A model generated the notes under the pieces. That model was not told the origin of the DNA. It was given only the letters and a program-made list of their open reading frames with translations, and made no database searches. Position numbers and translations under genes: made by a program. This document shows positions 16,059-32,953 of a stretch of DNA of 64,000 nucleotides, piece after piece. Positions within the stretch are counted from its first letter, which is position 1; every line of letters starts with the position of its first letter. The DNA is from Vicinamibacterales bacterium (GTDB lineage: Bacteria; Acidobacteriota; Vicinamibacteria; Vicinamibacterales; 2-12-FULL-66-21), in contig DATJFQ010000022.1 of assembly GCA_035495555.1 (NCBI GenBank), positions 61,273 to 125,272 of the forward strand. Direction: 5' to 3'.

Positions 16059-16059
16059 A

Positions 16060-18021
16060 TCAGGTCGAAAGCTCCGGTCTGTGGCTGAATTGTTCGAGCG
16101 CTTCCGGGTTGGCCAGCGCTTCCCTGTTCTTCACCTCGCGTCCGTGGACGACGTCGCGCACGGCCAGCTCGACGATCTTGCCGCTCCGGGTCCGCGGAAT
16201 GTCCGTGACCTGCACGATGCGCGCCGGCACATGACGCGGCGTGGTATTCGCGCGGATGTGCCTTCGGATGCGCTCACGGAACTCATCGTCCAGTGATGCG
16301 TCCCCCCGCAGGCGGACGAACAGGACAATGCGCTCGTCGCCGTGCCATTGCTGCCCGATCGCCAGGCTCTCGACGATCTCCGGAAGCTGTTCGACCTGCC
16401 GGTAGATCTCGGCGGTGCCGATCCGGACGCCGCCGGGATTGAGGACGGCGTCGGAGCGGCCGTAGATGATCACGCCGTTGTGCGCGGTCAGCTCGACGTA
16501 GTCGCCGTGCGTCCAGACGCCCCGGAACCGGTCGAAATACGCGGCGTGATACTTCCGGCCGTCAGGGTCGTTCCAGAATTCGACCGGCATCGAGGGGAAC
16601 GGCTGCGTGCACACGAGCTCCCCTTTCCGCCCGCGCACCGGCTGTCCGTGCTCGTCGTACACCTGGACGTTCATGCCGAGCGCTCTCGCCTGGATCTCGC
16701 CGCGCCAGACCGGCGCCGCGGGATTGCCGCCCACGAAGCAACTGATGATGTCCGTGCCTCCCGAAATGGACGCGAGGTGGATGTCGTGCTTGATGCCGCT
16801 GTAGACGAAATCGAACGCGTCGGGTGCCAGCGGCGATCCCGTCGACGTCATGGTTCGGAGCGACGCCAGCGAATGCGTCCGGATCGGGCGCATGCCCGCC
16901 TTTGCGACGGCATCGATGAATTTCGCGGATGTGCCGAACAGCGTCATGTGCGTCTGATCCGCCACATCGAACAGGACCGCGCCGTCGCGGTGCATCGGCG
17001 ATCCGTCGTACAGCACGATGGCCGCAGACGAGGCGAGCACCGACACCAGCCAGTTCCACATCATCCAGCCGCACGTCGTGAAGTAGAACACGCGGTCGTC
17101 CCGCTTGACGTCGCAGTGGAGCTGATGCTCCTTGAGGTGCTGGATCAGGGTGCCGCCCGCCCCGTGCACGATGCACTTGGGCACACCGGTCGTGCCGGAG
17201 GAATAAAGGATATAAAGCGGGTGGTTGAACGGCAGCGGCTCGCATTCCAGGGGGGCACCCCTGTGCGGCGCGACAAAGGCCTCCCACGACGTCGCTCCCG
17301 CGACATCCATGCCGCTGCCGCAGTCTGCGGCATCCGCGTGCGGGATGACGATGACGCGTCGCAGTGACGGGAGTGCCGGGACGATCGCGCGCGTCCGGTC
17401 AGTGCACGTGAACGGCCGGCCGCCGTAGTAATAGCCGTTCGCGCACACCAGAAGGCGGGGTTCGATTTGCCCGAACCGGTCGAGCACGCCCTGCACGCCG
17501 AAGTCGGGTGAGCACGACGACCAGACCGCCCCCACGGCGGCGGCGCCCAGCGCCGCGATCACCGTTTCGGCGATATTGGGAACGAAGCCCGCGACGCGAT
17601 CGCCGCGGCCGATGCCGCACGTCCGGAGCGCCCGTGCGAACGCCGCGGTTTCGCGGCGCAGCTCGGCCCAGGACCACGTGTGGAACGTCCCGCGTTCGTC
17701 CGTTGCGATGATCGCCGCCGCATCGTCCGTTCGCACGAGCGCGTTTTCCGCGAAGTTGAGTGTCGCGTCCGGAAAGAAGTGCGCGCCCGGCCGCATCTCG
17801 AAGGGCCGATCGGCGACGCGCGCGGTCCGCGTGCCGCGAATGCCAAAGAACTCCCAGCTCTCGGACCAGAAGCGTTCCGGGTCGCGCAGGCTCCAGTGGT
17901 AGAGATCTTCGTAGCCACCGAGATCCCGGATACCGGCGGCCTCCAGGTGCTCGCGGAATCGCGTCATCGTTGCGGCGGCAATTCGCTGCGGAGAGGGCAC
18001 CCAGAGCGGCTGGCCGCTCAT
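16060..18021 (-). CDS. acetoacetyl-CoA synthetase (acetoacetate-CoA ligase)
   Basis: AMP-binding motif [20 protein letters not shown]-type N-terminus ([17 protein letters not shown]...[23 protein letters not shown]) and C-terminus [15 protein letters not shown]. Confidence 0.88.
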
Positions 18022-18878
18022 TGCTCGCCTCGCGCCCGCAGCAGCGCCTCGCGCCAGCGGCGGGCGGACGCGAACGTGGACTCGATCACCGCGCCATCTG
18101 ATAGTCCATCGCGCAAGTGCTCCAGCGCTCTGATCAGTTCGTCGAGCGCGCCGCGCAGCGCGTCCTCGTTCGTCGCGGCAATGTCCCTCCAGATCCCCGG
18201 CGGACTGCTGGCAAGACGAGTGCTGTCCGCCAGTCCCGGGCCGGCCAGTTCGAGCGCCATGTCCCCGCCCGTCTTCCCCACGACGTGCATGAGCGCGCTC
18301 GACGCGAACTGCGGGAGATGACTGATGATGGCGAGATAGCGGTCGTGCAGGTCAGGCGTCATGACGTGCGGCGTGCTGCCGAGGCCTCGGACGAACCATT
18401 CCAGGCGCTCGAGCTGCGGCGCGTGGTCGGCGCGCGGCGTCAGGATCCAGGAATGGCCGTCGAAGAGATCGGCCCGCGCGTAGCGGCAGCCCGAGTGGAC
18501 CGCGCCGGCAATCGGGTGGCCACCGATGAAGGGAACGGGCGCCGCTTCCGCCGCAGCGACGATCGCCCGTTTGGTGCTCGCGACGTCGGTCACGAGCGCG
18601 TCGGCGCGCAGCACCGGCGGCAGCAGCGGCAGGAACTTGATGCTGGCGAGGACGGGCGCTGCCAGCACCACGAGGTCCGCGTCATTCAAGAGTTCGAGGT
18701 GCTCGCCGGCGCGATCGGTCAGCCCGGCTTCCGCCGCGTGCCTCGCGACGGCGCCATGATCGACCGCGACGATCTTGATCTTCGGCCAGCGCCGCCGCGC
18801 CGCCAGCGCAATGGATCCGCCGATCAGTCCGAATCCGACGATTCCGATCCGGCGAAACGGGGCGTCCGCATTCGTCAT
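18018..18878 (-). CDS. tyrA: prephenate (arogenate) dehydrogenase
   Basis: Rossmann motif IGIVGFGLIGGSIA and the PDH core (GGHPIAG...HDRYLAIISHLPQ). 4-nt overlap with the downstream synthetase gene. Confidence 0.85.
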   Translation of the reverse strand: MTNADAPFRRIGIVGFGLIGGSIALAARRRWPKIKIVAVDHGAVARHAAEAGLTDRAGEHLELLNDADLVVLAAPVLASIKFLPLLPPVLRADALVTDVASTKRAIVAAAEAAPVPFIGGHPIAGAVHSGCRYARADLFDGHSWILTPRADHAPQLERLEWFVRGLGSTPHVMTPDLHDRYLAIISHLPQFASSALMHVVGKTGGDMALELAGPGLADSTRLASSPPGIWRDIAATNEDALRGALDELIRALEHLRDGLSDGAVIESTFASARRWREALLRARGEQ

Positions 18879-18894
18879 TCGGCAGTCAGTATAT

Positions 18895-19944
18895 TCAGAC
18901 GCCCCATCCCCTCCGCGCGACGGGCTCGAGGCAGATGCTGCGCCCGATCGCAGGGGCGATGATTCGCAGTTCCGCCATCAGCCGATCGAACTGGGACGGA
19001 AACATCGACTGCGCGCCGTCGCTCAGCGCGTGGTCGGGGTCGCAGTGCACCTCGATGAGCAGGCCGTCGGCGCCCGCGGCCACCGCCGCGCGCGCCATCG
19101 GAGCGACCTTGTCGCGGATCCCGGTGCCATGGCTCGGATCGACGAACACCGGCAGGTGGCTGAGTTTCTTGACGACCGGAATAGCGGAAATGTCGAGCGT
19201 GTTGCGCGTGTAGCTTTCGAAGGTCCGGATCCCGCGCTCGCACAGAATCACGTTCATGTTCCCGCCGGCGAGAATGTACTCGGCCGAGAGCAGCCACTCC
19301 TCGATCGTGGCTGAAATGCCGCGCTTCAGCAGGACGGGTTTGCGCGCGCGCCCGAGTTCCCGCAGCAGGGTGAAATTCTGCATGTTGCGCGCGCCGACCT
19401 GCAGGATGTCGACGTAGCGCTCTTCCAGCTCGAGCTGGCTGATGTCCATGATCTCCGACACGAGCTTGAGGTTGTGCCGGTCCGCCGCGGCCCGCAGCAG
19501 CCGCAACCCTTCTTCCCCGAGGCCCTGAAAGCTATAGGGGCTGCTGCGGGGCTTGAACGCGCCGCCGCGCAGCGCCTTGGCGCCCGCCCGCTTCACGGCC
19601 GCCGCGGTCGCCTCGACCTGCTCTTCGCTTTCGGCGCTGCACGGGCCCGCCATCACGATCACCTCGTCGCCGCCTATCCGGAGATCGTCCATCGTGATCA
19701 CCGTGTCGTGCTGCTTGAACGTGCGGCTCGCCAGCTTGTACGGCTCGGTAATGCGATGGACTTCCTGGACGCCGTCGAGCACTTCGACGAGCCGCGTGTC
19801 GAACTGCCGCGTGCCGCCAACCGCGCCGAGCACGGTGCGCAGCGCGCCCGTCGAGCGGTGGACGTCGAATCCCATCTCCACGAGCTTTGCGATGACTTTC
19901 TGGACCTGCTCGTCGGAGGCCCGTTCCTGCATGACTACGACCAT
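18895..19944 (-). CDS. 3-deoxy-7-phosphoheptulonate (DAHP) synthase, type I-beta with N-terminal ferredoxin-like regulatory domain
   Basis: N-terminal MVVVMQERASDEQVQKVIAKLVEMGFDVHRS, followed by GPCSAESEEQ...LRGGAFKPRSSPYSFQGLGEEGL...KRG...DPSHG. Confidence 0.9.
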   Translation of the reverse strand: MVVVMQERASDEQVQKVIAKLVEMGFDVHRSTGALRTVLGAVGGTRQFDTRLVEVLDGVQEVHRITEPYKLASRTFKQHDTVITMDDLRIGGDEVIVMAGPCSAESEEQVEATAAAVKRAGAKALRGGAFKPRSSPYSFQGLGEEGLRLLRAAADRHNLKLVSEIMDISQLELEERYVDILQVGARNMQNFTLLRELGRARKPVLLKRGISATIEEWLLSAEYILAGGNMNVILCERGIRTFESYTRNTLDISAIPVVKKLSHLPVFVDPSHGTGIRDKVAPMARAAVAAGADGLLIEVHCDPDHALSDGAQSMFPSQFDRLMAELRIIAPAIGRSICLEPVARRGWGV

Positions 19945-19975
19945 GGTTGTCCTTCTCTATTCTACTGACGCACGC

Positions 19976-20284
19976 CTAACGGCCTGCGCTTCGGTCTTCG
20001 GCAATGCGCTCCAGGTGGCGAGCCTCGTCGATCACGCGCTCGAACAGCCGCCGCATCGCGGGCTGATCGAGCGGCCCGTTGTTGTACCGCTGCACGTTGT
20101 CGAGTACCTGCGCCTCGCGCTCCGGCTGATAGATGGGAATGCCGCGCTCGCGCTTGATCCGCCCGATTTCGAGCGCGCACGCCGCCCGCGCATTGAGCAG
20201 CCGGACGAGCGTTTCGTCCAGCAGGTCGATGCGATCCCGCAGTTCCTCGATGGTGTGACTCACGCTCGACCTTCCTTCAGCCAC
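19976..20284 (-). CDS. chorismate mutase (AroQ class)
   Basis: LRDRIDLLDETLVRLLNARAACALEIGRIKRERGIPIYQPEREAQVL is typical of the CM_2 fold. Confidence 0.85.
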   Translation of the reverse strand: MAEGRSSVSHTIEELRDRIDLLDETLVRLLNARAACALEIGRIKRERGIPIYQPEREAQVLDNVQRYNNGPLDQPAMRRLFERVIDEARHLERIAEDRSAGR

Positions 20285-21054
20285 CGTACGAACCTCCCGG
20301 CCTGCGACGCGACGTCCGCCGCGGCGCCGTGTTCAGCGATCACATTTACCAGCGCGCTGCCGACGACGGCGGCGTCGGCCCAGCGGCAGACTTGCGCGAC
20401 GTGCTCGGGACGGGAAATCCCGAATCCGACCGCCAACGGCAGCGTGGAATGCGCGCGCACGCGCCGCGCCAGCCCTTCTGCCTCCGCCGAGACGTGATCC
20501 CGCGCGCCCGTGACCCCCAGGCGCGAAATGAGATACAGGAACCCGCGACCCATGTCGGCCGATGCCTCGATCCGTACATCGGTTGTGGTGGGGCTCAGCA
20601 GAAAAATGGGATCGATCGATGCCGGGATCAGCGTCGAGCGCAGCGGCCCTGCTTCCTCCACCGGCAGATCCAGCAGGAGAACGCCGTCAACGCCCGCGGC
20701 CGCGGCGGCGGATACGAACGCGTCTTCGCCAAACCGCAGAATCGGATTGACGTACGTAAAGAGCACGATCGGCGCCTCGATCCGCGATCGCGACCGGGCG
20801 ATCATGTCGAGCGTCCTGCGCAGCGTCGCGCCGCCCGCGAGCGCGCGTTCCGACGCACGCTGAATCACCGGGCCGTCCGCCAGCGGATCAGAGAACGGGA
20901 CGCCCACCTCGAGCACGTCGGCCCCGCTGTCGGAGAGCGCCGTCAGAATGTCCGCCGTCCGATCGATCGTCGGATCTCCCGCGGTGACATACGCGACCAG
21001 CCCCGGACCGCCGCTGCGTCGCAGACGTTCGAAGGCGTTCGAGATGCGCGACAT
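20260..21054 (-). CDS. trpA: tryptophan synthase alpha chain
   Basis: [11 protein letters not shown]...LVAYVTAGDP...LEVGVPFSDPLADGPVIQ...GFGIS. The start ATG shares one nt with the trpB stop. The rest of the 530-aa ORF-track frame overlaps trpB and is spurious. Confidence 0.93.
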   Translation of the reverse strand: MSRISNAFERLRRSGGPGLVAYVTAGDPTIDRTADILTALSDSGADVLEVGVPFSDPLADGPVIQRASERALAGGATLRRTLDMIARSRSRIEAPIVLFTYVNPILRFGEDAFVSAAAAAGVDGVLLLDLPVEEAGPLRSTLIPASIDPIFLLSPTTTDVRIEASADMGRGFLYLISRLGVTGARDHVSAEAEGLARRVRAHSTLPLAVGFGISRPEHVAQVCRWADAAVVGSALVNVIAEHGAAADVASQAGRFVRWLKEGRA

Positions 21055-22274
21055 CAGCGCATCCCCTCCATGGCCGCCTGCACGCTGAGCACGTCCTTGT
21101 CGCCGCGCCCGGACAGATTCACGAGCACGATGTCGTGCGGCGACATCGTCCCGGCGAGTTCGCACGCATAGGCGATCGCATGCGACGACTCGAGCGCCGG
21201 CAGGATCCCCTCTTCGCGCGCAAGCCGCTGGAATGCGGCCAGCGCGCGGTCGTCGTCGCACCACGTATATTCCGCTCGGCCGCGCTCTCGCAGCCACGCG
21301 TGCTCGGGACCAACCGACGCGTAGTCGAGCCCCGCGGAAATCGAGTGGGTCAGCTCGACGTTGCCGTCCGCGTCCTGCAGCACGTAGCTCCTGGTGCCCT
21401 GCAGCACACCAGGGGTGCCGCCCGCGAATCGAGCCGCGTGCTGCCCGGGTTCGAGACTGCGGCCGCCGGCCTCGACCCCAACGAGGCGCACCGATTGGTC
21501 GTCCACGAATGCGTCGAAAATGCCCATCGCATTGCTGCCGCCGCCCACGCAGGCCACCACCGCGTCGGGGAGCCTGCCGAGTTGCTCGAGCGATTGTGCG
21601 CGTGCCTCGCGTCCGATGACCGATTGAAATTCGCGCACCATCAGCGGGTACGGATGCGGCCCCAGGACCGAGCCGAGCAGGTAGTACGTGTCGTTCACGT
21701 TGGCCACCCAGTCGCGCATCGCCTCGTTGATGGCGTCTTTCAACGTGCGGCTGCCGCCGCTCACTTCCACGACGTCGGCACCCAGCAGCCGCATGCGAAA
21801 GACGTTCAGCGACTGGCGCGCCATGTCGTCCGACCCCATGTAGACTCGACACTCGAGGCCGAGCAGCGCGCAGGCGGTCGCACTGGCAACCCCATGCTGG
21901 CCGGCGCCCGTTTCCGCGACGATGCGGCGCTTGCCCATGCGTGAGGCCAGCAGTGCCTGGCCGAGCGCGTTGTTGATTTTGTGGGCGCCGGTATGTGCCA
22001 GGTCTTCACGCTTGAGGACGATCCGGGCGCCGCCGCTCGAAGCGCTCAGGCGCGCCGCCTCATACAGCGGCGTCGGGCGTCCCACGTAATTGCGGAGCAG
22101 CGTTCCGAGTTGTTGACGGAAGTCCGGGTCGTCGCGGGTGCGGAAGTACGCGGCCGTGAGTTCCTCGACGGGCGCCACGAGCGTCTCCGGCACGAAACGG
22201 CCGCCAAACGCTCCGTAGTAGCCACGCGCGTCAGGATCGCGGGCGCCGAACACGGGAATCGAGATCTCGGTCAT
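21054..22274 (-). CDS. trpB: tryptophan synthase beta chain
   Basis: GRPTPLYEA...[16 protein letters not shown] (PLP lysine)...GGGSNAMG. Confidence 0.96.
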
Positions 22275-22888
22275 AGCTCACGGACTGCGGCAAACAGCGC
22301 GCGCAGTCTGGCTGGATCCTTTCTGCCGGGCGCGTATTCGACGCCCGACGATACGTCCACGGCATACGGGCGCACGGCCCGGATCGCTTCGGCGACATTG
22401 CCGGCGTGGAGCCCCCCGGAGAGCACGATCGGGCGCACGGCGGCCACGCGCGCCGCAAGCATCCAGTCGATCGTTCGTCCGGTGCCGCCGCGCTTCACGG
22501 GATCATGAGCATCGAGCAGCGGAAGCACCGGCGATGGCAGCGCGCGGGCTGTCTCGACGTCCGCCTCTTCGCCGATCGCGATGGCCTTCATCACCTTGCA
22601 TCCGTCGATTGGGTACGCGTGCACGTCCTCGTCGCCGTGCAACTGCACCGCCGCGAGGCCGACGGCCTGCGCGACGTCCCGGACGGCGTCGGGCGTTTCA
22701 TCGACGAAGACGCCGACGGGATCAACTCCGCGCGGCAGGGCCGCGACGACCGCTCGCGCTGTATCGATGCTCACGTTCCGTGGGCTCCCCTTCCAGAAAA
22801 TCATCCCGACGGCGAACGCGCCCAGTTCCGCAGCGAGCCGCGCGTCGTCCGGGGTCGTGACCCCGCAGATCTTGATCCGCGTCATCAT
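22271..22888 (-). CDS. trpF: phosphoribosylanthranilate isomerase
   Basis: [16 protein letters not shown]...AVQLHGDE...LSGGL, the typical PRAI pattern. Confidence 0.92.
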
Positions 22889-23113
22889 TTCAGTCGCATC
22901 AATCGCGGGCTACGCCCGCGTTCCGCGCTCCGTGCAATGGGGCCCCTGCTCGGACAGCCCCCCTTCGTGCTCGGCGGCCCAAAAGACGGGTCGACGGGGC
23001 GCCGCCTCCGCGCGAAGCGGGGCACCCCGTCCTCGCCCCATCGCGGCTGAACCGTCCGGCCCCGCCCTCCGCACGCCGCCTCCGCGTTTCTTCCGCTACG
23101 TGTTCGCTCGCTG

Positions 23114-23914
23114 TCACGCGATCCCTCGAAGGCGCCGAAGCGCTGCTCCCGGATCCGGTTCGGTGATCAGACGCTCACCGACGAGAAACGCGCGGTAGCC
23201 GCAGTTCTCGAGTCGATCGAGATCGTCACGGGACCTGAGTCCACTCTCCGCGATCGCGATCACGCCTGACGGAAGCTCGCGCGCCAGGCGCTCGTGGATC
23301 GCGGGATCGACGTCCAGCGTCCGCAGATTGCGGCTGTTGACGCCCACAATCGCAGCGCCTGCATCGAGCGCTCGTGCGAGTTCCGCCTGATCGTGGACTT
23401 CGACGAGCGCGGCGAGCCCGATCTCGCTCGCTGCAGCCAGCAGCTCGTGCAGCTCCGCGTCGCTCAGCGCACCGACGATCAGCAGAGCCGCGTCGGCGCC
23501 CGACGCCGCGGCCTCGAGGAGCTGGTATCGCGAGACGATGAAGTCCTTCCGCAGGAGCGGCACATCAACGGTCGCGCGGACGCTCCGCAGGTGCGCGAGC
23601 GAACCGTCAAAAAACGTCGGTTCGCTGAGGACCGAGATCGCGGCTGCGCCAGCCGCCGCATACGCTCGCGCATGTGCCGGCGGATCGTAGTCCTGCCGCA
23701 GGATGCCGCGTGAGGGCGACCGCCGTTTGCACTCGGCGATGATGCGCGGCGACGCGCTCGTCGACACGGCCGCGGCGAACGCGGCTCCGCGCGGCGGACG
23801 CTGCGCTGCCTCGCGCTCGAGCAGCCGCTCAGGCGCGTGTGCGTGGCGCACGTCCGTGATGCGCCGGGCCGCCGCCACGATCGCCGCGAGCAGGTCCGGC
23901 GCGCTCGTCGTCAT
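23114..23914 (-). CDS. trpC: indole-3-glycerol phosphate synthase
   Basis: IIAECKRRSPSRG...ISVLSEPTFFDGS...LRKDFIVSRYQ...VEVH...GVNSRNL...ESG. ATGA overlap with the trpD stop. The ORF-track extension up to 24700 overlaps trpD. Confidence 0.93.
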   Translation of the reverse strand: MTTSAPDLLAAIVAAARRITDVRHAHAPERLLEREAAQRPPRGAAFAAAVSTSASPRIIAECKRRSPSRGILRQDYDPPAHARAYAAAGAAAISVLSEPTFFDGSLAHLRSVRATVDVPLLRKDFIVSRYQLLEAAASGADAALLIVGALSDAELHELLAAASEIGLAALVEVHDQAELARALDAGAAIVGVNSRNLRTLDVDPAIHERLARELPSGVIAIAESGLRSRDDLDRLENCGYRAFLVGERLITEPDPGAALRRLRGIA

Positions 23915-24936
23915 GCGACGACCTCGACATTCGACGCTCGCACCAAGTGATGGAGTGTGGCCGCCGCCCGCCCTTCGTCGATCGCGGCCGCCGCGATTGC
24001 GATCCCCTCTGGAATCGAGGCGACCCGGCCGGCGATGAGCAGCGATGCTCCGGCATTCAGCAACACCACGTCGCGTGCGGCACCTGACGCCCCGCTCAGC
24101 ACCGCCCGGACGACGCCGGCGTTCTGTGCGGCGTCGCCGCCTTTGAGTGCCTCCGGGGCAGCTTTCGAGAGACCGACGTCCGCCGGGTGCAGGTAGAAGG
24201 TGTTGACCGCGCCATCCCGGCACTCCGAGATTTTCGTGTAGCCGGTCGTGGAAATCTCGTCGATCCCATCGGCGCCGTGGACGACCCAGGCCCGTTCCGA
24301 TCCGAGCAGCGCGAGCGATTTCGCCACGAGTTCGGTCAGCTCCGGCTGCGGCACGCCGACGAGCTGCCGCTTCGCGCCTGCCGGATTCGTGAGCGGTCCG
24401 AGCAGGTTGAAGGCAGTCCGGATGCCGAGCGAACGCCGTGTCGGCGCCGCGTGTTTCATCGCGGGATGGAACGTCTGGGCGAAGAGGAACGCGATGCCGG
24501 CTTCGTCGAGGCAGCGCATCGCGACGCCGGGCGCCGCCGCCACGTTCACGCCGAGCGCTTCGAGCACATCGGCCGTCCCGCATCGGCTCGACACGCTGCG
24601 GTTGCCATGTTTCGCGACGCGCACGCCGCACGCCGCGACGACGATCGCCGCCATCGTCGAGATGTTGATCGTGTGTGCACGATCGCCGCCGGTACCGCAC
24701 GTGTCGAACACGCTGCCCGCCGGCGCCGGCAGCTTGACCGCGCGCTCGCGCATGGTTCGCGCAAGGCCCACGATTTCGTCGGGGCGCTCGCCCTTCATGA
24801 CGAGGCCGACAAGAAAGCCGGCAATTTCCGCCGGCGAGGCGGACCCGTCCATGATCGCCGCCATCGCGGACGCCGCCTCCCCTTCTGTCAAGTCCACCCG
24901 CCGCCGGAGTTTCTCGATGAGATCAGGGAACATCAC
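23911..24936 (-). CDS. trpD: anthranilate phosphoribosyltransferase
   Basis: DTCGTGGD...NISTMAAIVVAACGVRVAKHGNRSVSS signature. Confidence 0.95.
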   Translation of the reverse strand: MMFPDLIEKLRRRVDLTEGEAASAMAAIMDGSASPAEIAGFLVGLVMKGERPDEIVGLARTMRERAVKLPAPAGSVFDTCGTGGDRAHTINISTMAAIVVAACGVRVAKHGNRSVSSRCGTADVLEALGVNVAAAPGVAMRCLDEAGIAFLFAQTFHPAMKHAAPTRRSLGIRTAFNLLGPLTNPAGAKRQLVGVPQPELTELVAKSLALLGSERAWVVHGADGIDEISTTGYTKISECRDGAVNTFYLHPADVGLSKAAPEALKGGDAAQNAGVVRAVLSGASGAARDVVLLNAGASLLIAGRVASIPEGIAIAAAAIDEGRAAATLHHLVRASNVEVVA

Positions 24937-25493
24937 AGCTCCAGGAAGTTGCGCAGGATCTTCTTGCCCTCACCCGTCAGCACGGACTCGGGATGGAACT
25001 GGACGCCGTGGATCGGATACTCGCGATGCCTGACCCCCATGACGATGCCGTCAGCGGTTCTGGCGCTCACCTCCAGGACATCAGGCACCGGCTCCGAAAC
25101 GACCAACGAATGGTACCGGCCGGCGACGAACGGCTGTGTGACGCCCGCGAACACGCCGCGGCCGTCGTGTTCGAGCGACGAGGTCTTCCCGTGCATCAGG
25201 CTCGGCGCGCGGCAGATGGTGCCGCCGAATGCATAGCCGATCGCCTGGTGTCCCAGGCACACGCCGAGCAGCGGGACGCGGTCCCCGAAGGTGCGAATCG
25301 TGTCGACGCTCACGCCCGCGTCTTCCGGGCGCCCTGGACCCGGCGAAATGACGATGCGCTCCGGGTGGAGCGATTCGATGTCGCCAACCGTGATTTCGTC
25401 GTTCCGCCGCACTACAGGCGGGGCCCCGAGCTCGCCGAGGTACTGGGCCAGGTTGAACGTGAACGAATCGTAGTTGTCGAGGAGGAGAATCAC
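24933..25493 (-). CDS. trpG: anthranilate synthase component II (glutamine amidotransferase)
   Basis: ILLLDNYDSFTFNL...ISPGPG...PLLGVCLGHQ...HGVQFHPES. Confidence 0.95.
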   Translation of the reverse strand: MILLLDNYDSFTFNLAQYLGELGAPPVVRRNDEITVGDIESLHPERIVISPGPGRPEDAGVSVDTIRTFGDRVPLLGVCLGHQAIGYAFGGTICRAPSLMHGKTSSLEHDGRGVFAGVTQPFVAGRYHSLVVSEPVPDVLEVSARTADGIVMGVRHREYPIHGVQFHPESVLTGEGKKILRNFLEL

Positions 25494-26980
25494 AGTTCGA
25501 CTTCCGCCATCGTGATCGCCTGCAGGAGTGCCCGCGCCTTGTCGCGCGTCTCCTCGTATTCCGCGGCGGGATTCGAGTCCGCCACGATGCCGGCGCCCGC
25601 TTGTATTCGCGCGACGCCATCGCGAATCGTGATCGTGCGAATCGCGATGCAGGTGTCGAGGTTGCCGGCGAAATCGATATAGCCCACGGCGCCGGCGTAA
25701 AGATCACGCCGCGTCGGCTCCAGCCCCGCGAGAATCTGCATCGCGCGGATCTTGGGTGCGCCCGAGACGGTCCCCGCTGGAAAGCACGCGACGAGGGCAT
25801 CGAGATGGTCGTTCGCTTCCGACAGGCGGCCTTCGACGGTCGATACCAGGTGCATGACGTGCGAGTAGCGCTCGAGCGCCATGTATTGCGGCACGCGGAC
25901 CGTGCCGATCTCCGCCACGCGGCCCACGTCGTTGCGTCCAAGATCCACGAGCATGACGTGCTCGGCGCGCTCCTTCTCGTTGCGTTTCAGCTCTTCGGCG
26001 AGACGCAGATCTTCGTCCTCGCTGCGGCCGCGCGGCCGCGTGCCGGCGATCGGATGCGTCTCCACTCGACGCCCTTCCACTCGTACCAGCATTTCCGGTG
26101 ACGACCCGACAATCGTCAGTCCGCCCATGCGGATGTAATACATATACGGTGACGGGTTCACGTGCCTGAGCGCCCGGTACACCGTGAATGGTTCCGCGTT
26201 GACCCGCACTTCGAACCGCTGTGACAGGACGGCCTGATAGATGTCTCCGGCCGCGATGCGTTCCTTGATCGCGCGCACTCCGGATTCGAACGCTTCCCGC
26301 GTGACGTTCGAGGCGACGTCTGGCACAGGCCGATCGCCCCGTGCCGCGTAGGACAGCCCGCGTTCGAGCTCGCGCTCGAGGAACTGGATCTTCGCGCAGG
26401 CGAACTGATAAAGCGCCGACAGGTCCTCGTCGGCGGTGACGCGCGCGTTGGCGATCACCAGGATCCGATGCTTGACGTGGTCGAACGCGAGCACGGTGTC
26501 GAACAGCATGAACCCCGCGTCGTCCTCTTCTTTCCGGCTGTGAGCCCAGGCCGCCTGCTCCCACGCGGAACGCAGGGCGGGCTCGAATTCGATGCTGGCG
26601 TCATAGCCGATGAACCCGACGGCGCCGCCCGTGAAGCGCGGTAGATCCGGTACGAACGGCGCGCGGAACTCCGCCATCAGCCGGCGCAGCGTCGGCACGA
26701 ACGGTTCCGCAGACGACGTCGTCACGCCGGATCGGTCGATGATCGTCTGCCCGTCGCGGGACCGCAGCACGAGGAAGGGGTCTTTGCCGAGGAACGAATA
26801 GCGGGCGACCTGCTCCCCGCCTTCGACGCTCTCGAACAGGAAGGCGTAGTCCGAGTGTTCGGCGATCTTGAGAAAGGCAGACACCGGCGTCAGCAGGTCC
26901 GCCATGATTTCCTTCACGACCGGCACGAACGTCCCGCGCCGCGCGAGTTCCACGAATTCTCCGTACGTCGTCTGTCTCAT
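25490..26980 (-). CDS. trpE: anthranilate synthase component I
   Basis: LLTPVSAFLK...LFESVEGGE...SPSPYMYYI...GSSPE...GTVSGAPKIRAM. Confidence 0.95.
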   Translation of the reverse strand: MRQTTYGEFVELARRGTFVPVVKEIMADLLTPVSAFLKIAEHSDYAFLFESVEGGEQVARYSFLGKDPFLVLRSRDGQTIIDRSGVTTSSAEPFVPTLRRLMAEFRAPFVPDLPRFTGGAVGFIGYDASIEFEPALRSAWEQAAWAHSRKEEDDAGFMLFDTVLAFDHVKHRILVIANARVTADEDLSALYQFACAKIQFLERELERGLSYAARGDRPVPDVASNVTREAFESGVRAIKERIAAGDIYQAVLSQRFEVRVNAEPFTVYRALRHVNPSPYMYYIRMGGLTIVGSSPEMLVRVEGRRVETHPIAGTRPRGRSEDEDLRLAEELKRNEKERAEHVMLVDLGRNDVGRVAEIGTVRVPQYMALERYSHVMHLVSTVEGRLSEANDHLDALVACFPAGTVSGAPKIRAMQILAGLEPTRRDLYAGAVGYIDFAGNLDTCIAIRTITIRDGVARIQAGAGIVADSNPAAEYEETRDKARALLQAITMAEVEL

Positions 26981-28422
26981 GTTTGTCGTAATTCCCGGGC
27001 ACGCCGCGCCGCCGCGGCGAAAAGGCCGTTCGGCGGCCGCTGCCCCGTCCAGATCTCGAACTGACGTTCGGCTTGCGCGATGAGCATGTCGAGGCCGCCG
27101 ATCACCTGACAGCCGGACTCTTCGGCGCGGCTGATCAACTCGGTCCGCTCCGGGTCGTACACGAGGTCATAGACGAGGCTGCCATCCAGCGGATGCTCGA
27201 TCGGCAGGCCCGGAGTTCCGCGGCTTCCAACCGGCGTTGCGTTGATCAAGAGGTCCCACGATCCCGGCGGCGGAGGCCACGTGCAGGACTCCACACCCAC
27301 CGCCTGTGCCGCCTCGTCTCCCGCGGCCGCGCGGCGTGCGCTCATCGCGACGCGCGCACCTTGCGCCCGGAGTGCCACGGCCGCCGCCCGTGCCGCGCCG
27401 CCCGCGCCAAGGATCACTGCACGCGCGCCGAGCAGCGGAACATTCCGACGCTGCAGCGGCTCGAGGAATCCCTCGGCGTCGGTATTCATTCCGATCCACC
27501 GGCCATCGCGAATGGCGATGGTGTTGACCGCCCCGGCTGCGGCGGCACTCGGCGCCAGATCGTCGAGCGCCGCCATCACCGTCTGCTTGAAAGGGATGGT
27601 GACGCTGAAGCCGCGGACGTTCAGCGACGACGCCACGTCGCGAAGTCCCTGCAGATCGCCGGTGTCGAACGGCACGTAGGCGGCATTGAGACCGAGCGCG
27701 GCAAAACCGGCGTTGTGCATGGCGGGCGACAACGATCGGGAAACGGGACGCCCGAGGACACCGTAAACGGCGGCGTCGCCGCGAATCCGCCGGAAGCGGA
27801 ATTCCTGCAGGAGCCGCGCTGCAGACAGCTGTCCCGGCGCGACCTCGTCGCCCGCATACGTCCATCGCGAGTGGAAACGCCCTGCAAGCACACGCGTGGC
27901 AAGGCCCGCGTCGCCCATGCCGATGACGATTGACGGCGGGTCGTACGTCGCCGCCTGCGTCAGCCGGGTGAGCTCCGAGATCGAATCGACGGTCATGGCG
28001 AGCTTCGCGACCTCGGCGCCGGAGGTTCGCAACCCCCGTATCAACTCGCCCGGATCGGCGGAGGACTTCTCGAAGCAGTGACGCGAGACGATGACGCCTC
28101 GGCCCCGGCGCGCGCGGATCAGTTCCACCGAATCCGCGTCCCACTCGACGTCGACGTATTCGGCGCCCCGCGCGAAAGCGTCGCGCAGAATTCCGAGCCG
28201 TTCGGATTCCGGGCCGGCGAACCGGCCGCCTTCGCGGACAGGACGGCACGTCACGATCACCGGCTTGCGGCGCCCTTCGAGCGCCGCGGCGGCATCGGGG
28301 CGCGACACGAAGTCCAGCCGGAGCTCCACCAGGTCGGCGTCCGCTTCAGCGGTTTCGCGCGCGCGGCGGAGCGCCTCGGTCGTGGCGCCGGTGACCGTCA
28401 CACAAAGTTCGGGCTCGGACAT
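26977..28422 (-). CDS. aroDE: bifunctional 3-dehydroquinate dehydratase (type I) / shikimate 5-dehydrogenase
   Basis: The N-terminal half resembles AroD (LCVTVTG...DLVELRLD...VDVEW...KLAM). The C-terminal half resembles AroE (YGVLGRPVSRSLSPAMHNAGF...VTIPFK...NTDAEGF...ILGAGGAA). I prefer the ATG at 28422 (MSEPELCV). The ORF-track extension to 28539 runs through a terminator hairpin and the leader ORF. Confidence 0.85.
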   Translation of the reverse strand: MSEPELCVTVTGATTEALRRARETAEADADLVELRLDFVSRPDAAAALEGRRKPVIVTCRPVREGGRFAGPESERLGILRDAFARGAEYVDVEWDADSVELIRARRGRGVIVSRHCFEKSSADPGELIRGLRTSGAEVAKLAMTVDSISELTRLTQAATYDPPSIVIGMGDAGLATRVLAGRFHSRWTYAGDEVAPGQLSAARLLQEFRFRRIRGDAAVYGVLGRPVSRSLSPAMHNAGFAALGLNAAYVPFDTGDLQGLRDVASSLNVRGFSVTIPFKQTVMAALDDLAPSAAAAGAVNTIAIRDGRWIGMNTDAEGFLEPLQRRNVPLLGARAVILGAGGAARAAAVALRAQGARVAMSARRAAAGDEAAQAVGVESCTWPPPPGSWDLLINATPVGSRGTPGLPIEHPLDGSLVYDLVYDPERTELISRAEESGCQVIGGLDMLIAQAERQFEIWTGQRPPNGLFAAAARRARELRQT

Positions 28423-28465
28423 AAAACGCAAAAGCCCCCTCAACCGCTGGGATTGAGGGGGCTTT
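28419..28465 (-). terminator. intrinsic terminator in the 5' leader of the aro-trp supraoperon (attenuator terminator)
   Basis: The minus strand reads AAAGCCCCCTCAA tcccagcgg TTGAGGGGGCTTT TGCGTTTT ATG: a perfect 13-bp stem, a 9-nt loop and a U-rich tail. No minus-strand gene lies upstream, so it sits in a leader rather than at a gene end. Confidence 0.8.
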
Positions 28466-28499
28466 GGAATGCCGTTGGTGTCGTTGCTCGCGGCCGCAG

Positions 28500-28583
28500 C
28501 TAGCCGTTTGCCCCCTCGTGGGACGTAAACCACCACCAATACGCATACGGCGCGCAGACGGAACGGCGGTTGACGGCGGGCAT
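28500..28583 (-). CDS. putative aromatic/Trp leader peptide, 27 aa (MPAVNRRSVCAPYAYWWWFTSHEGANG)
   Basis: Own translation; the ORF is too short for the ORF track. Three consecutive TGG codons (28538->28530) are flanked by Tyr, Tyr and Phe codons. Codons 23-25 contain GAGGGGGC, which is complementary to the 5' arm of the downstream terminator. Confidence 0.7.
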   Translation of the reverse strand: MPAVNRRSVCAPYAYWWWFTSHEGANG

Positions 28584-28829
28584 GCTGCTCACGAGAGGTT
28601 CACGATATCACACGACAGCCGGGGATGAAACCGCGGCTTCACGACCGTTTTCAACGGGTCGCTCCGGCCGAATCGACCAGAATGTCGGCGGCGAGCGCCC
28701 ATTCGACCGTGAGCTCCGTCTGCGCGCGCCCACCGCCGCAAAACGTGCTATAAAGGGCTGATACACAAGGACATTTCTGTTTGCTGATTCGTCACTCAGC
28801 ACTCCGAAATCTCAGCTTCAATTCACCGT

Positions 28830-30665
28830 ATGAGAATCCGGGTTCTGCTCGCAGCCGCCGCGATCGCGGCCGGACTTGTCACTTCTCTGCCCGCGTCCAC
28901 CGCCCTGATGCCGATCGACGAGGTGCGTCCCGGAATGGACGGCGTCGGGCGGACGGTGTTCCAGGGCGCCGACCCCCAGGACTTCACCGTCCACATCATC
29001 GGCGTGCTGAAAAACGTGCAGGCGCCGCAGCGGGACCTGATTCTCGCCAGGCTCGAAGGCGGTCCGCTCGCCGCGACGGGCGTCATTGCGGGCATGAGCG
29101 GCAGCCCCGTCTACATCGATGGACGACTCGTGGGCGCCATCTCGTACTCAATCGGATCGTTCTCGAAGGAACCGATCGCGGGCATCACGCCGATCGGTGA
29201 AATGATCGATGCCACGGCGACGGCATCCACCCGGCGCGCGAACGCGCCGGCGGCGTCCCGCATTCCGCTGCCGATCACGCCGCAGAACCTCGCGTCGGCG
29301 ATCCGAAGCGCGTACGCGCAGGTCGCGGCGTTCGCCGACCGGCCCGCCGACGTGCAGTCGATCGGGATGCCCGCTGCGTCCGGCGCGCAGATCGGTGCGA
29401 TGCTCAGGCCGATCGCCACTCCGCTCGTGCTGAGCGGCTTCGACGCGCGTACGGCGGATCTCGTCACGTCCATGTTCGGCGGCGCGGGGTTCACGCCGAT
29501 GCTGGGCGGCGCGGCGGGAACCCCGGATGACACGAAGCCGGCCCCGCTGCGGCCGGGCGATCCCGTAGGCGTCCAGCTGCTCAGCGGCGATGGCGAAATG
29601 GGCGCCACCGGAACCGTCACACACGTCGACGGCACCCGCGTCTACGCATTCGGGCACCCGTTCTTCAACGTCGGGCCGGCGGAATTCCCCATGACGCGCG
29701 CGCGCGTTTACACGACGCTCCCGAGCCTGCAGTCCTCGTTCAAGATCGCGACGATGGGCGACGTGATCGGCTCTGTGCAGCAGGATCGGGCAACGGCGAT
29801 CGCGGGAACGCTCGGCGCAGGGCCCCGGCTGATTCCGATCCACGTGTCGTTGACGTCGGACCGCGGCCCTGAACACACCTTCACCTTCAACATCGTCAAC
29901 GACCAGTTGTTCACGCCGCTGCTCGCCTACGTGTCGCTGTTCAACACGCTCGGGAGCTACGAGCGGCAGTTCGGCGCGGCGACGTTCAGCGTCAAGGGCA
30001 GCGCGCAGTTCGCGGATCACGCGAGCCTCGACTTCGACGACATTTTCACCGGCGATGGCCCGATCGCCGGCGCCTCGGCGTACGTGGCGGGACCGCTGAC
30101 GATGCTGCTCGCGAACGATCTCGAACGTGTCGACTTGAAATCCCTGGACCTGAAAATCGCGGCGTCCGAAGAGTCGCGCAGCGCAACCATCGAACGGGTG
30201 TGGATCGACGAAGTGCGTCCGCGCGCGGGCCAGACTGTCCCGCTCAAGGTGCTCACGCGCAACTATCGCGGGGCCGAAACGATTTCGACGATCCCGATCG
30301 ACATCCCGTCGAACGCGAGCGGGCAGCTCACCGTGCTCGTGACCGACGGCAAGCAGCTCAATCAGCTCGAGGCGCACGAGCTTCGCCGCGAGCTCGAGCC
30401 GCAGAGCGTCGCGCAGATGATCCGCGTGCTGAACGAAACCCATCGCAACAACCGCATCTACGTGCGGCTGCTGACGGGAAGCCCGGGCGCCGTCATCAAC
30501 GGCGAGGCGATGACCTCGCTTCCCCCGTCGGTGCTGGCCGTCCTCGACGGTGACCGCAGCAGCGGCGACTTCACCCCGATCCGGAGCGCCGCGATCGGCG
30601 AATGGGAACTGCCGATGACGTCAGCCGTGTCGGGGACGCGCGCGCTCACCATCGACGTTCGTTGA
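28830..30665 (+). CDS. secreted peptidase S55 (SpoIVB-like) family protein
   Basis: Signal peptide, then the GVIAGMSGSPVYIDGRLVGAISY serine motif, as in SpoIVB-type proteases. Confidence 0.7.
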   Translation: MRIRVLLAAAAIAAGLVTSLPASTALMPIDEVRPGMDGVGRTVFQGADPQDFTVHIIGVLKNVQAPQRDLILARLEGGPLAATGVIAGMSGSPVYIDGRLVGAISYSIGSFSKEPIAGITPIGEMIDATATASTRRANAPAASRIPLPITPQNLASAIRSAYAQVAAFADRPADVQSIGMPAASGAQIGAMLRPIATPLVLSGFDARTADLVTSMFGGAGFTPMLGGAAGTPDDTKPAPLRPGDPVGVQLLSGDGEMGATGTVTHVDGTRVYAFGHPFFNVGPAEFPMTRARVYTTLPSLQSSFKIATMGDVIGSVQQDRATAIAGTLGAGPRLIPIHVSLTSDRGPEHTFTFNIVNDQLFTPLLAYVSLFNTLGSYERQFGAATFSVKGSAQFADHASLDFDDIFTGDGPIAGASAYVAGPLTMLLANDLERVDLKSLDLKIAASEESRSATIERVWIDEVRPRAGQTVPLKVLTRNYRGAETISTIPIDIPSNASGQLTVLVTDGKQLNQLEAHELRRELEPQSVAQMIRVLNETHRNNRIYVRLLTGSPGAVINGEAMTSLPPSVLAVLDGDRSSGDFTPIRSAAIGEWELPMTSAVSGTRALTIDVR

Positions 30666-30682
30666 TCGGACGCACGAGCCAC

Positions 30683-32953
30683 ATGCCACCACGTCTTTTC
30701 CGTTTCGGGCGGGCCCTCGTGTGGCCGCTCGCTGGCATCGCCCTGACCGTCACGCTTGGCGCCGCGGCGCCGACGTTCTGGACCGTGTCGACGCAAAGCG
30801 ACTTTCTCAAAGGCGACGTCGAGAACCTCTCGATTGATGCCGACGGCCGCGTGTCACTGGGGCCGGAGACCAGGCGCCTCGCCGATACGTCCGCGCCATT
30901 CATCTGGTCCGTTGTCGCCGCGAGCGATGGCGCCCTGTGGGCCGGGACCGGCAACGAGGGGCAGGTCCTCCGCGTGGCGAAGGACGGCAAAGCGACGACC
31001 ATTTTCGACGCGACGGAGATCGAAGTGCACGCGCTCGCGCCCGCGCCAGACGGCGGCATGTATGTCGGAACGTCTCCTGACGGAAAGATCTATCGCGTCG
31101 CGGCCGATGGCAAGTCGACGACGTTTTTCGACCCCGACGATAAATACATCTGGGCTCTCGCGGTCGCGTCCGACGGCACCGTCTACGCGGGCACTGGCGA
31201 GAAGGGCGTCATCTATCGCATCGGCGCAGACGGCAAAGGCTCGGTGTTCTACAAGACGAACTCGACAAACGTCGTGTCGCTCGCCATCGACCACGAGGGC
31301 AACGTCATCGCCGGCACCGAATCGCCCGGCCGGATCTTCCGCATCGATAAAACGGGCAAGGCTTTCGTGCTGCTCGATTCGCCGTTCAAAGAGATCCACG
31401 CGGTGCGCGTGGCGGACGACGGGAGGATCTACGCGGCCGCGTTCAGCGGAACGCCGGGCGGCGAAGACCGGCCGTCGGTTCCGGTGTCCTCGGCGCCGTC
31501 CGAGCCGTCCACGGCGAGTGCGTCCGTTCCGAACGTGACGGCGGAAGTAACGTCGATCACCGTCGTCGACGCCGGGGCGTCCACCGGAGCCGGACCGACG
31601 ACGCGCGAGTCGCGAGCGCACAACGCGAAGGGGGCGATTTATCGCATCCGTACCGACGGCCTGTGGGACACCGTCTGGGAACCGACGGACGACTGGCCGT
31701 TCGATCTCCTGATCGAGAACGACGGATCGCTGCTCGTCGGCACGGGGAAGGAAGGCAAGCTGTTCCGCATCGCAGGCGAGCCCGCGCGTGCCACGTTGAT
31801 TGGGCGCGCCGGCGCGCGGCAGATCACGTCGCTCGTCCGCGACGGCTCCGGCCGCGTCGTCGCCGCGACCAGCAATCCCGGTCGGTTGTTCGCGGTCGCG
31901 AGCACCCGCGCCCCGACGGGCAAGTACGACTCAGACGTCCGCGACGCGGGCACGGTTGCGACGTGGGGCGCGATCCGCTGGCGCGCATCGGGGAATCCGG
32001 CGGACGTGCAGCTCTTCACGCGCTCGGGAAATACCGCGACGCCGGACGATACCTGGAGTGCGTGGTCGCAGGCGTATACGAGGGCCGGCGGCGAATCCAT
32101 TACGAGCCCGAATGCGCGATACCTGCAGTGGCGCGCGGTACTCTCGGCAACCCCGAGCGGGGGCGCCGGACCCGTGCTCACCTCCGTGACGACGGCGTAC
32201 CTGCCGCGCAATCTGCCGCCCGCCGTTTCAAGTATCACGGTGCATCCGCCGGGCACGGTCTTTCAACGGCCCTTCTCGACCGGCGAACTGGAGATTGCCG
32301 GATTCGACGACAACACCTCCGACGGCCGCGTGCAGGCGCAGCAGGCCTCGCAATCCTCGAGCGCCGTTCCGACGCTGCCGTCCCCGGCACTCGGACGGAA
32401 GGTCTATCAGAAGGGGCTGCAGACATTCGTCTGGAAGGCGGACGACGACAACGACGATCGGCTGCAGTACGACGTGTACTATCGCCGCGAGGGGGAAACC
32501 GCGTGGCGACCGCTGAAGCGCGGCTTGTGGGATCCAATCTTCGTCTGGGACACCACGTCGGTGCCCGACGGCACGTACTACATCAAGGTGACGGCGTCCG
32601 ATGCGCCGTCCAACTCACCGGCGACCGCGCTGACGGGTGAGCTCGAGAGCACGAGCTTCGACGTCGACAACACAGCGCCTCATATCGAGGTCCTCTCCGC
32701 GGTGCGCAACGGGAGCAAGGCTGTTATCACGTTCGTGGTGCGGGACGACCAGACCGCCGTCCAGCGGGTCGAGTATTCGTTGGATGCGAGCCGCTGGCAG
32801 GTGGCGTATCCGGTCGACGGGATTGCCGACTCACGGGAGGAGAAATACCAGGTCACGATAGACGGCAGCGAGGCCGTCCGCAGCGTGATCATCCGGGCGT
32901 CGGACGCGATGAATAACGTCTCTACGGCCGTAGCGGAGGTGAAGCGGCCATAG
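30683..32953 (+). CDS. beta-propeller repeat protein with C-terminal Y_Y_Y/Ig-like domains
   Basis: Repeated ...DG.(I/V)Y(A/V)GT...G.(I/V)(Y/F)R(I/V)..DGK... blades. C-terminal LQYDVYYRREGETAWRPL (Y_Y_Y-like). ATG 30683 (MPPRLFRFG, signal-like) lies just after the S55 gene stop. Confidence 0.7.
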   Translation: MPPRLFRFGRALVWPLAGIALTVTLGAAAPTFWTVSTQSDFLKGDVENLSIDADGRVSLGPETRRLADTSAPFIWSVVAASDGALWAGTGNEGQVLRVAKDGKATTIFDATEIEVHALAPAPDGGMYVGTSPDGKIYRVAADGKSTTFFDPDDKYIWALAVASDGTVYAGTGEKGVIYRIGADGKGSVFYKTNSTNVVSLAIDHEGNVIAGTESPGRIFRIDKTGKAFVLLDSPFKEIHAVRVADDGRIYAAAFSGTPGGEDRPSVPVSSAPSEPSTASASVPNVTAEVTSITVVDAGASTGAGPTTRESRAHNAKGAIYRIRTDGLWDTVWEPTDDWPFDLLIENDGSLLVGTGKEGKLFRIAGEPARATLIGRAGARQITSLVRDGSGRVVAATSNPGRLFAVASTRAPTGKYDSDVRDAGTVATWGAIRWRASGNPADVQLFTRSGNTATPDDTWSAWSQAYTRAGGESITSPNARYLQWRAVLSATPSGGAGPVLTSVTTAYLPRNLPPAVSSITVHPPGTVFQRPFSTGELEIAGFDDNTSDGRVQAQQASQSSSAVPTLPSPALGRKVYQKGLQTFVWKADDDNDDRLQYDVYYRREGETAWRPLKRGLWDPIFVWDTTSVPDGTYYIKVTASDAPSNSPATALTGELESTSFDVDNTAPHIEVLSAVRNGSKAVITFVVRDDQTAVQRVEYSLDASRWQVAYPVDGIADSREEKYQVTIDGSEAVRSVIIRASDAMNNVSTAVAEVKRP

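Follow-up and report, generated by a model that had tools for sequence, protein, structure and literature searches.

What controls the aroDE-trpEGDCFBA-chorismate mutase-DAHP synthase-tyrA operon of Vicinamibacterales bacterium (Acidobacteriota)? The operon lies on the minus strand of a 64-kb stretch of contig DATJFQ010000022.1 (64,000 nucleotides; below, "the window" means this whole stretch, and coordinates are counted from its first letter) and is preceded, between a divergent promoter region and aroDE, by a short open reading frame (ORF) with tandem Trp codons and by a hairpin. A first-pass annotation of the window had taken these parts for a trpL-type switch of leader peptide, antiterminator and terminator. 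Conservation, covariation and geometry in about 65 loci back this assignment, and we consider it very probable that the locus encodes a ribosome-mediated (leader-peptide) transcription attenuator that senses charged tRNA-Trp and controls the aroDE-trp-aro operon.

Classical leader-peptide attenuation has long been documented mainly in Proteobacteria and Actinobacteria. When it was surveyed in 2010, leader-peptide systems were known only in these two groups, and the survey added a case from the Firmicutes.

Results

A tandem-Trp leader ORF, a terminator and three complementary boxes

The minus strand was read directly. Counted from the ATG at 28583, the leader ORF has 27 codons and encodes MPAVNRRSVCAPYAYWWWFTSHEGANG*, with three UGG codons at 28538->28530; TGGTGGTGG occurs a single time in the 64-kb window, against 0.16 occurrences expected. 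The aroDE ATG at 28422 lies 77 nt past the leader stop, and the interval contains a hairpin of 13 perfect base pairs (arms AAAGCCCCCUCAA / UUGAGGGGGCUUU, 28465->28431), which reaches 15 bp if its loop is narrowed to 5 nt; UGCGUUUUAUG follows. The octamer GAGGGGGC is present in the leader ORF at 28517->28510 (referred to below as the box) and in the 3' arm of the hairpin at 28441->28434, and its complement is present in the 5' arm at 28462->28455; counting both strands, the three GAGGGGGC sites of the window all fall inside 84 nt. The spacing of the box is exactly 12 nt from the last UGG and 7 nt to the UAG. Thus, the first-pass annotation had given correct coordinates for the ORF, the UGG run, the hairpin, the octamers and their spacings. 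The full-length RNA of the window folds into the terminator, and the 206-nt region folds with z = -3.0 relative to shuffled sequences. The coordinates of all features are collected in Table 1.

The element is conserved in Vicinamibacteria

We compared loci around AroDE homologues, 79 of them from species-representative genomes and 80 from metagenomes; the best AroDE homologues came from Vicinamibacterales (Acidobacteriota) wherever the source was named. The short ORF, the G-rich box and the hairpin are present in every Vicinamibacteria-type locus with enough upstream DNA except L128, and AroDE identity among the element-bearing loci is 46-93%. The leader cores of these relatives read …F-[T/A]-S-Y-W-W-W-[Y/F]…, with SYWWRR, SWWRF and AWWRFFYF in side branches, and their hairpins have the form GCC(C/U)C(C/U)UCA…UGA(G/A)G(G/A)GGC followed by a U run. 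Mean column identity in the leader alignment is 58%, i.e. the loci are not near-identical copies; the order aroDE-trpE-trpG-trpD is preserved among the relatives. In total, the search upstream of aroDE orthologues that the first-pass annotation had proposed recovered a conserved short tandem-W ORF and the three-box arrangement, together with the compensatory changes described below.

A covariance model built from 54 leaders gave full-length sense matches directly upstream of aroDE in 66 loci, i.e. in 65 loci at E <= 1e-13 and in L014 at 39 bits (E 4.6e-9); most of these matches are in the training set, and those in L005, L014, L100, L103, L125 and L126 are independent of it. In the window, the model matched once (28410-28550, 101 bits). 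By contrast, no full-length match at E < 0.1 was detected in 81 loci from Terriglobia, Blastocatellia-type bacteria, Pyrinomonadaceae, Bryobacterales, Brocadiia and others. Similarly, no W-rich leader was found upstream of aroDE or between aroDE and trpE in other Acidobacteriota, including many Terriglobia that link both genes; apparent WW matches in these bacteria were located inside the aroDE coding sequence in another frame and were discarded. Altogether, the distribution indicates that the element is specific to one class, the Vicinamibacteria.

Several relatives depart from the common pattern. The leader ends in …AWWRFFYFCSQSGEAAVRA in the divergent L014 (2640-2920), and in …AGWRCFYFS(S/T)QSGEAAVQA in L015 (2560-2830) and L134 (680-945). 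The latter two leaders have one Trp codon, while Phe and Tyr codons are retained, as are terminator and G-rich box; the element could be decaying here, or could have come to sense something else. In L128 (1-320; AroDE ~47% identical), ~130 nt separate a divergent gene from aroDE, and they contain neither a leader ORF nor a terminator. In L005 (~2775-2903), a long-read metagenome-assembled genome (MAG), the usual stop is absent, the leader ORF reads through the terminator and the box contains a 7-G run; the missing stop is likely a homopolymer sequencing error.

The leader frame and its aromatic codons are conserved

In 47/47 sequences, the W frame is open between position W1-51 (counted from the first W codon) and the stop, whereas the other two frames are open in 27/47 and 33/47. 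In 47/54 leaders, the stop lies exactly 39 nt past the first W codon, and WW or WWW is invariant in the alignment while flanking residues vary. These sequence comparisons clearly point to selection on the leader reading frame.

The codons around the W run are also biased. Among 52 distinct sequences, and in counts that are inflated by the relatedness of the sequences, the codon preceding the W run is TAT in 45 and TAC in none, TTT is the commonest codon at -4 (24/52), and TTT is also frequent at +3. In the genes of the window, TAT accounts for 30% of Tyr codons and TTT for 10% of Phe codons, and rare regulatory codons are typical of attenuators. Because these flanking codons are rare and because genes for DAHP synthase, chorismate mutase and TyrA are part of the operon, it is plausible that the leader would read a shortage of Tyr or Phe as well.

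The terminator 5' arm can pair with two partners

In the 52 distinct sequences, 94.3% of the cells of the terminator are paired, and 7 of its 15 pairs are changed on both sides, a result that was equalled in 0/500 shuffles. Moreover, the stretch between the W run and the stop can pair with the terminator 5' arm in every sequence (7-13 bp, -16 to -24 kcal/mol). The mean energy of this duplex is -19.2 kcal/mol, as compared to -5.3 kcal/mol for windows of equal length upstream of the W run, with a mean z of -3.0 versus shuffles. Column by column, 81% of the antiterminator cells are paired, versus 37-57% if the partner is slid by 1-3 columns.

At position 6, the 5' arm has C, paired with a G in the box, in 47 sequences; in the other 5, it has U instead of C, and box and 3' arm alike have A in place of G in 5/5. 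At position 4, a U in the 5' arm is faced by G (wobble) or A. Judged from the alignment, we take this three-strand covariation to be genuine, if thin. The nucleotides of the box are preserved even though they are read differently in the peptide (EGA, TRGQMR, DTRGIA or PRGEA); therefore, the constraint is on the RNA and not on the peptide.

Ribosome geometry is consistent with a kinetic switch

A ribosome covers approximately -15 to +15 around the first P-site nucleotide. With this footprint assumed, a ribosome with any of the UGG codons in the A site reaches at most 28520 and leaves the box at 28517-28510 free, whereas a ribosome with the UAG in the A site covers 28520-28490, including the box. 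In the relatives, the last W codon and the paired box are 6-14 nt apart (mode 12), and mostly ~7 nt separate the end of the box from the stop. With the RNA masked to W3+9 and the 3' arm left out, the mean antiterminator probability is 0.96, and it is above 0.5 in 48/48 sequences. The energies of the two structures, whose comparison the first-pass annotation had suggested, are -24.2 kcal/mol (antiterminator domain) and -25.8 kcal/mol (terminator hairpin) in the window, and -24.9 kcal/mol and -25.7 kcal/mol on average. The choice between terminator and antiterminator would be kinetic, as in classical attenuators. In total, the locus contains the parts by which an attenuator is recognised, i.e. 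a tandem-W ORF, a terminator before the first gene, an alternative antiterminator helix and the ribosome geometry that links them.

We propose that the switch would operate as follows. Transcription would start a few nt before the GTG at 28592, and the leader would be translated at once. When Trp-tRNA is plentiful, the ribosome would run to the UAG at 28502 and its footprint would cover the box; the 5' arm (28465-28451) would then pair with the 3' arm (28445-28431), and the polymerase would terminate at the U tract before aroDE. Under a shortage of Trp-tRNA, the ribosome would stall with one of the UGG codons (28538-28530) in the A site, and the box, 12 nt past the last UGG, would remain outside the ribosome. 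The free box would pair with GCCCCCUC (28462-28455) once this has been transcribed, the 5' arm would be taken up and the polymerase would read through into the operon. With the rare Tyr and Phe codons beside the Trp codons, a shortage of Tyr or Phe would probably cause the same stall.

Leader start and putative promoter

The first-pass annotation had started the leader at the ATG at 28583. The ORF stands, whereas this start is probably not the one used: the ATG is not conserved, and L080, the closest relative, has CUG in its place. An in-frame GTG, TTG or ATG is found at W1-54 or W1-51 in nearly all sequences, and its counterpart in the window is the GTG at 28592. Thus, the alignment suggests that the leader probably starts at GTG 28592 and encodes a peptide of 30 aa.

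In 44/47 related leaders, the motif TGnTAnnnT, which resembles an extended -10 element, ends 8-11 nt before the conserved leader start, and in L007, L009, L010 and L119 it is preceded by TTGACA at a spacing of 18 bp; a strict TTGACA/TATAAT scan of the window made no call on the corresponding TGATATCGT. From the position of this motif, the transcription start site (TSS) would be near 28596-28594, a few nt before GTG 28592. Because a start codon 8-11 nt past the -10 element leaves no room for a Shine-Dalgarno sequence, the mRNA that serves for translation of the leader may be leaderless or nearly so.

In the largest clade of relatives (L001, L084, L089, L094 and others), TTAGACGCC is kept ~30 nt upstream of the TGTGTTAGGCT -10 element. 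This is not the position expected for a -35 hexamer, and TTAGACGCC is absent from the clade of the window; it may serve the leader promoter as an operator or as an activator site.

Segment 1:2 and the default state

Several observations weigh against a classical ribosome-driven switch. The first-pass annotation had proposed GUCCC/GGGGC as a 1:2 element; a weak hairpin of this kind is present in the window, but it has no conserved counterpart. RNAalifold detected no conserved 1:2 helix in 55 sequences, and apart from the terminator its consensus contained just a 3-bp hairpin on the 3' border of the box. Free RNA folded from 36 nt upstream of W1 still forms the antiterminator in 46/48 sequences, and free RNA folded from the putative TSS does so in 27/44. 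Conversely, in a nested fold of the window from the putative TSS, the antiterminator has a probability of 0.05 even with a stalled ribosome, because of a long-range helix between 28595-28573 and 28507-28487; such a fold with a masked ribosome forbids pseudoknots and allows helices that close around the ribosome, and we judged it uninformative. The antiterminator helix of the window is only 8 bp long and leaves the 3' arm a toehold of 4-5 nt on the 5' arm. The covariation comes from few independent events, approximately two lineages plus the L014 type, among related sequences. Several clades have UUG as the sole conserved start, which is not what would be expected of strictly leaderless initiation. 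As described, only one W codon is left in L015 and L134, and L128 is without the element. Finally, when the predicted leader peptides of Streptomyces ilvB and leuA were mutated, the outcome was not that of classical attenuation (PMC1262725).

A duplex between the transcript 5' end and sequence after the stop reaches -17 kcal/mol in the clade of the window. Over 45 sequences, this duplex is weak, i.e. -10.5 kcal/mol for self pairs, -9.7 kcal/mol for cross pairs and -8.4 ± 2.9 kcal/mol for shuffled pairs, and with self pairs barely better than cross or shuffled pairs, we rejected it as a general anti-antiterminator. A shorter complementarity is more widespread: CACG, complementary to CGUG at the start codon, is found within 12 nt after the stop in 25/47 sequences, as compared to 3/47 in the next 12 nt. 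As a lead only, CGUG-CACG pairing may limit re-initiation or set the untranslated default.

Alternative explanations

In a different explanation, the switch is real but is set by a trans-acting factor, i.e. an RNA-binding protein or a small molecule acting on the G-rich box or the spacer, and the W ORF is incidental or secondary. The lack of a conserved 1:2 helix is in keeping with such a factor, as is the Streptomyces precedent for leaders that are not classical attenuators; moreover, with the free RNA of many relatives defaulting to the antiterminator, something must favour termination. However, a factor of this kind accounts neither for a W frame that is open in all sequences nor for the fixed distances from the start to the W run and from the W run to the stop, nor for the invariant WW/WWW. 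Conservation of the spacer that separates box and terminator is poor, which would be unusual for a domain that binds a ligand or a protein, and no T-box, riboswitch or other Rfam match at E <= 10 and no TRAP-type array was found. We therefore regard a trans-acting factor as quite improbable. It is very improbable that the leader acts mainly after transcription, with the leader RNA and/or peptide working in trans in the manner of rnTrpL and peTrpL or with the ribosome-binding site masked, and with attenuation in cis of minor importance. The attenuator-derived rnTrpL of Sinorhizobium (S.) meliloti does act on trpDC in trans (PMC6614838), but such an activity would add to attenuation rather than replace it, and the peptide is not conserved here beyond its aromatic core. 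Masking of the aroDE Shine-Dalgarno sequence, which the first-pass annotation had raised, is possible where the terminator abuts the AUG, and in the clade of the window the 3' arm does hold the sole purine-rich run before the aroDE AUG; in many relatives, however, the terminator lies 50-190 nt upstream of aroDE, so that masking is not the conserved function.

That a chance ORF lies beside an ordinary intrinsic terminator, which ends an upstream transcript or works bidirectionally and involves no switch, has a next to negligible probability. Short open frames are common in DNA of 65% G+C, as the two other leader frames illustrate, and the count of three GAGGGGGC sites in the whole window is at chance level. 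By contrast, the upstream gene (28830-30665, plus strand; weak S55 peptidase match) is divergent and no minus-strand gene ends there; therefore, the hairpin cannot be the terminator of a preceding gene. Moreover, TGGTGGTGG is unique in the window, ORF, box and hairpin recur at fixed spacing in ~65 loci, with AroDE identities as low as 46%, but in none of the 81 loci of other classes, and the three strands covary together, all of which contradicts a chance arrangement. Altogether, attenuation by a ribosome that translates the leader remains the explanation that we favour.

Comparison with known systems

No match to RF00513 Trp_leader, T-box or riboswitch models was found by Rfam in 26000-31000 at E <= 10, and no Trp_leader match was found in the whole window at the gathering score. 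The best chance-level match, an Enterococcus sRNA model on the opposite strand of the hairpin (E = 0.68), was discarded. Searches of Pfam and NCBIfam with the 30-aa and the 27-aa leader peptide returned no family at E <= 10. With no entry in Rfam, Pfam or NCBIfam, leader peptide and attenuator alike are probably missed when these genomes and MAGs are annotated. A full-text search of the literature turned up no paper that describes a trp attenuator in Acidobacteria or Vicinamibacteria. In total, the sequence comparisons provide good support for a Trp attenuator of known trpL-type logic that has apparently not been described previously for Vicinamibacteria.

In Escherichia (E.) coli trpL (RF00513), the position of the leading ribosome sets the outcome. 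The element described here shares with it a leader ORF with tandem UGG codons, a terminator before the first gene and an antiterminator that uses the terminator 5' arm. It differs in having three W codons instead of two, in placing segment 2 inside the ORF, ending 7 nt before the stop, instead of mostly after the stop, in having neither a conserved 1:2 pause hairpin nor room for a Shine-Dalgarno sequence, and in that the first regulated gene is aroDE and not trpE. The mechanism of trpL attenuation is summarised in PMC6614838.

While the logic would be that of E. coli trpL, the Actinobacterial trp attenuators appear closer still. In Corynebacterium and Streptomyces, these have double or triple UGG codons, GC-rich terminators with poly-U and boxes of the type gGCC-rGCy-GGCC (PMC1262725). 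As in the element of the window (GAGGGGGC / GCCCCCUC / GAGGGGGC), three mutually complementary boxes are found in a high-G+C background. However, the box sequences are unrelated and the phylum differs; the operon of the window starts with a common-pathway gene and adds DAHP synthase, chorismate mutase and tyrA, and its leader has conserved rare Tyr and Phe codons.

The trpL peptide of S. meliloti has 14 aa and contains WWW. This leader is ribosome-dependent and comprises SL1, SL2 (antiterminator), SL3 (terminator) and a short leader peptide (PMC6614838). In contrast to the operon of the window, only trpE(G) is regulated there; functions in trans are documented for the liberated RNA (rnTrpL) and peptide (peTrpL), whereas the leader of the window is not known to have any, and there is no sequence similarity.

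The aro supraoperon of Bacillus (B.) subtilis resembles the operon of the window in that the trp genes are part of a larger aromatic operon (aro, tyrA) with a terminator/antiterminator leader. In the B. subtilis trp operon, TRAP binds 11 (G/U)AG repeats and there is no leader peptide, whereas here a W-rich ORF is present and, in a search of 28423-28620 for a TRAP-type (G/U)AG array (~9-11 triplets, 2-3 nt apart), the longest chain was 1 triplet. In mycobacteria, leaderless polycysteine short ORFs function as Cys-responsive attenuators. Like the leader of the window, they are rich in regulatory codons near the 5' end of the transcript; unlike them, the leader of the window has a canonical terminator/antiterminator, and its leaderless status is putative. 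Candidate Cys leader peptides were described without an obvious intrinsic terminator (PMC1262725).

Features and gene context

Table 1. Features of the proposed attenuator and of the operon in the window.
Feature	Position	Strand	Remarks
Leader ORF, (M)SSMPAVNRRSVCAPYAYWWWFTSHEGANG*	28500..28592	-	GTG 28592 (conserved start) or ATG 28583 to TAG 28502-28500
Putative extended -10, TGATATCGT	28602..28610	-	TATCGT hexamer at 28607->28602; predicted promoter function
Aromatic run UAU GCG UAU UGG UGG UGG UUU (Y A Y W W W F)	28527..28547	-	Putative regulatory Trp codons 28530-28538
Segment 1 candidate, GUCCC	28520..28524	-	Pairs with GGGGC 28514->28510 in free RNA (minimum free energy folds); weak, 5 bp
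Segment 2, GAGGGGGC, antiterminator strand in leader codons E-G-A	28510..28517	-	Pairs with 28462->28455
Spacer between segments 2 and 3, including the stop codon	28466..28509	-	28487-28507 can pair with transcript 5' end 28573-28595 (clade of the window)
Terminator 5' arm (segment 3)	28451..28465	-	Core GCCCCCUC 28462->28455 common to antiterminator
Terminator 3' arm (segment 4), GGUUGAGGGGGCUUU	28431..28445	-	Hairpin -25.8 kcal/mol
U-rich tail, UGCGUUUU	28423..28430	-	Adjoins aroDE AUG; relatives have runs of 6-9 U
aroDE, first structural gene (3-dehydroquinate dehydratase / shikimate dehydrogenase fusion)	26977..28422	-	Pfam DHquinase_I, Shikimate_dh_N, SDH_C
Remaining co-directional aromatic genes: trpE, trpG, trpD, trpC, trpF, trpB, trpA, chorismate mutase, DAHP synthase, tyrA	18018..26980	-	Pfam

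The gene identities given by the first-pass annotation (aroDE, trp, chorismate mutase, DAHP synthase and tyrA) agree with the Pfam matches, and the chorismate mutase is of the CM_2 type (19976-20284, minus strand). Most gene junctions in the aromatic block overlap or are shorter than 35 nt. Within this otherwise tight operon, trpC and trpF are separated by a GC-rich gap of 225 nt with stops in all frames (22889-23113, minus strand), which could be the remnant of a gene or the site of an internal promoter or terminator-like structure. From the gene spacing, it is plausible that one leader would control 13 genes, as had been proposed, and the trpC-trpF gap bears on its reach. Beyond tyrA come an AMP-binding (acyl/acetyl-CoA synthetase-like) gene, which shares 4 nt with the tyrA end, and, 1 nt further on, a thiolase gene (14880-18021, minus strand); neither is an aromatic gene, and both may belong to the same transcript as the aro-trp block.

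AroDE homologues (475-490 aa) share the start motif M-S/P-E/D-P-x-L-C. The aroDE frame is open for 117 nt upstream of the AUG, across the terminator, to a TTG inside the W run (26977-28539, minus strand). A start at this TTG (28539) was considered and rejected, the homologues starting at the equivalent of 28422. An ORF caller that extends aroDE in this way could hide the attenuator.

Upstream of the leader, CCTTTATAGCA is kept in the window (~28746-28756) as well as in L001, L002, L004 and L008. Its reverse complement, TGCTATAAAGG, resembles an extended -10 element that faces the divergent plus-strand gene at 28830-30665, and its conservation suggests a conserved divergent promoter and synteny. 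A tRNA gene at 50817-50887 (plus strand) is the sole Rfam match at the gathering score in the window.

Discussion

Beyond an attenuator of known logic, the locus may be a variant in which a leaderless or nearly leaderless leader mRNA, integration of Trp, Tyr and Phe signals, and CGUG-CACG pairing in place of the 1:2 hairpin are combined. We consider it doubtful that all three hold together; each would, if true, have its own consequence. With a leaderless start, translation would be coupled to the polymerase from the first nucleotides on. With CGUG-CACG pairing, re-initiation would be shut off and the default state set. Integration of three amino acids would match an operon that makes enzymes of the common pathway, of Tyr synthesis and of the chorismate branch.

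Attenuation by the leader predicts that the whole aromatic operon responds to the charging of tRNA-Trp, and perhaps also to that of the Tyr and Phe tRNAs. The three-box terminator/antiterminator design would thereby recur, with unrelated sequence, in a third high-G+C lineage, and the alignment and the covariance model could seed a family. The Vicinamibacteria, an abundant and barely cultured soil lineage, would gain an interpretable cis-regulatory RNA with a defined signal.

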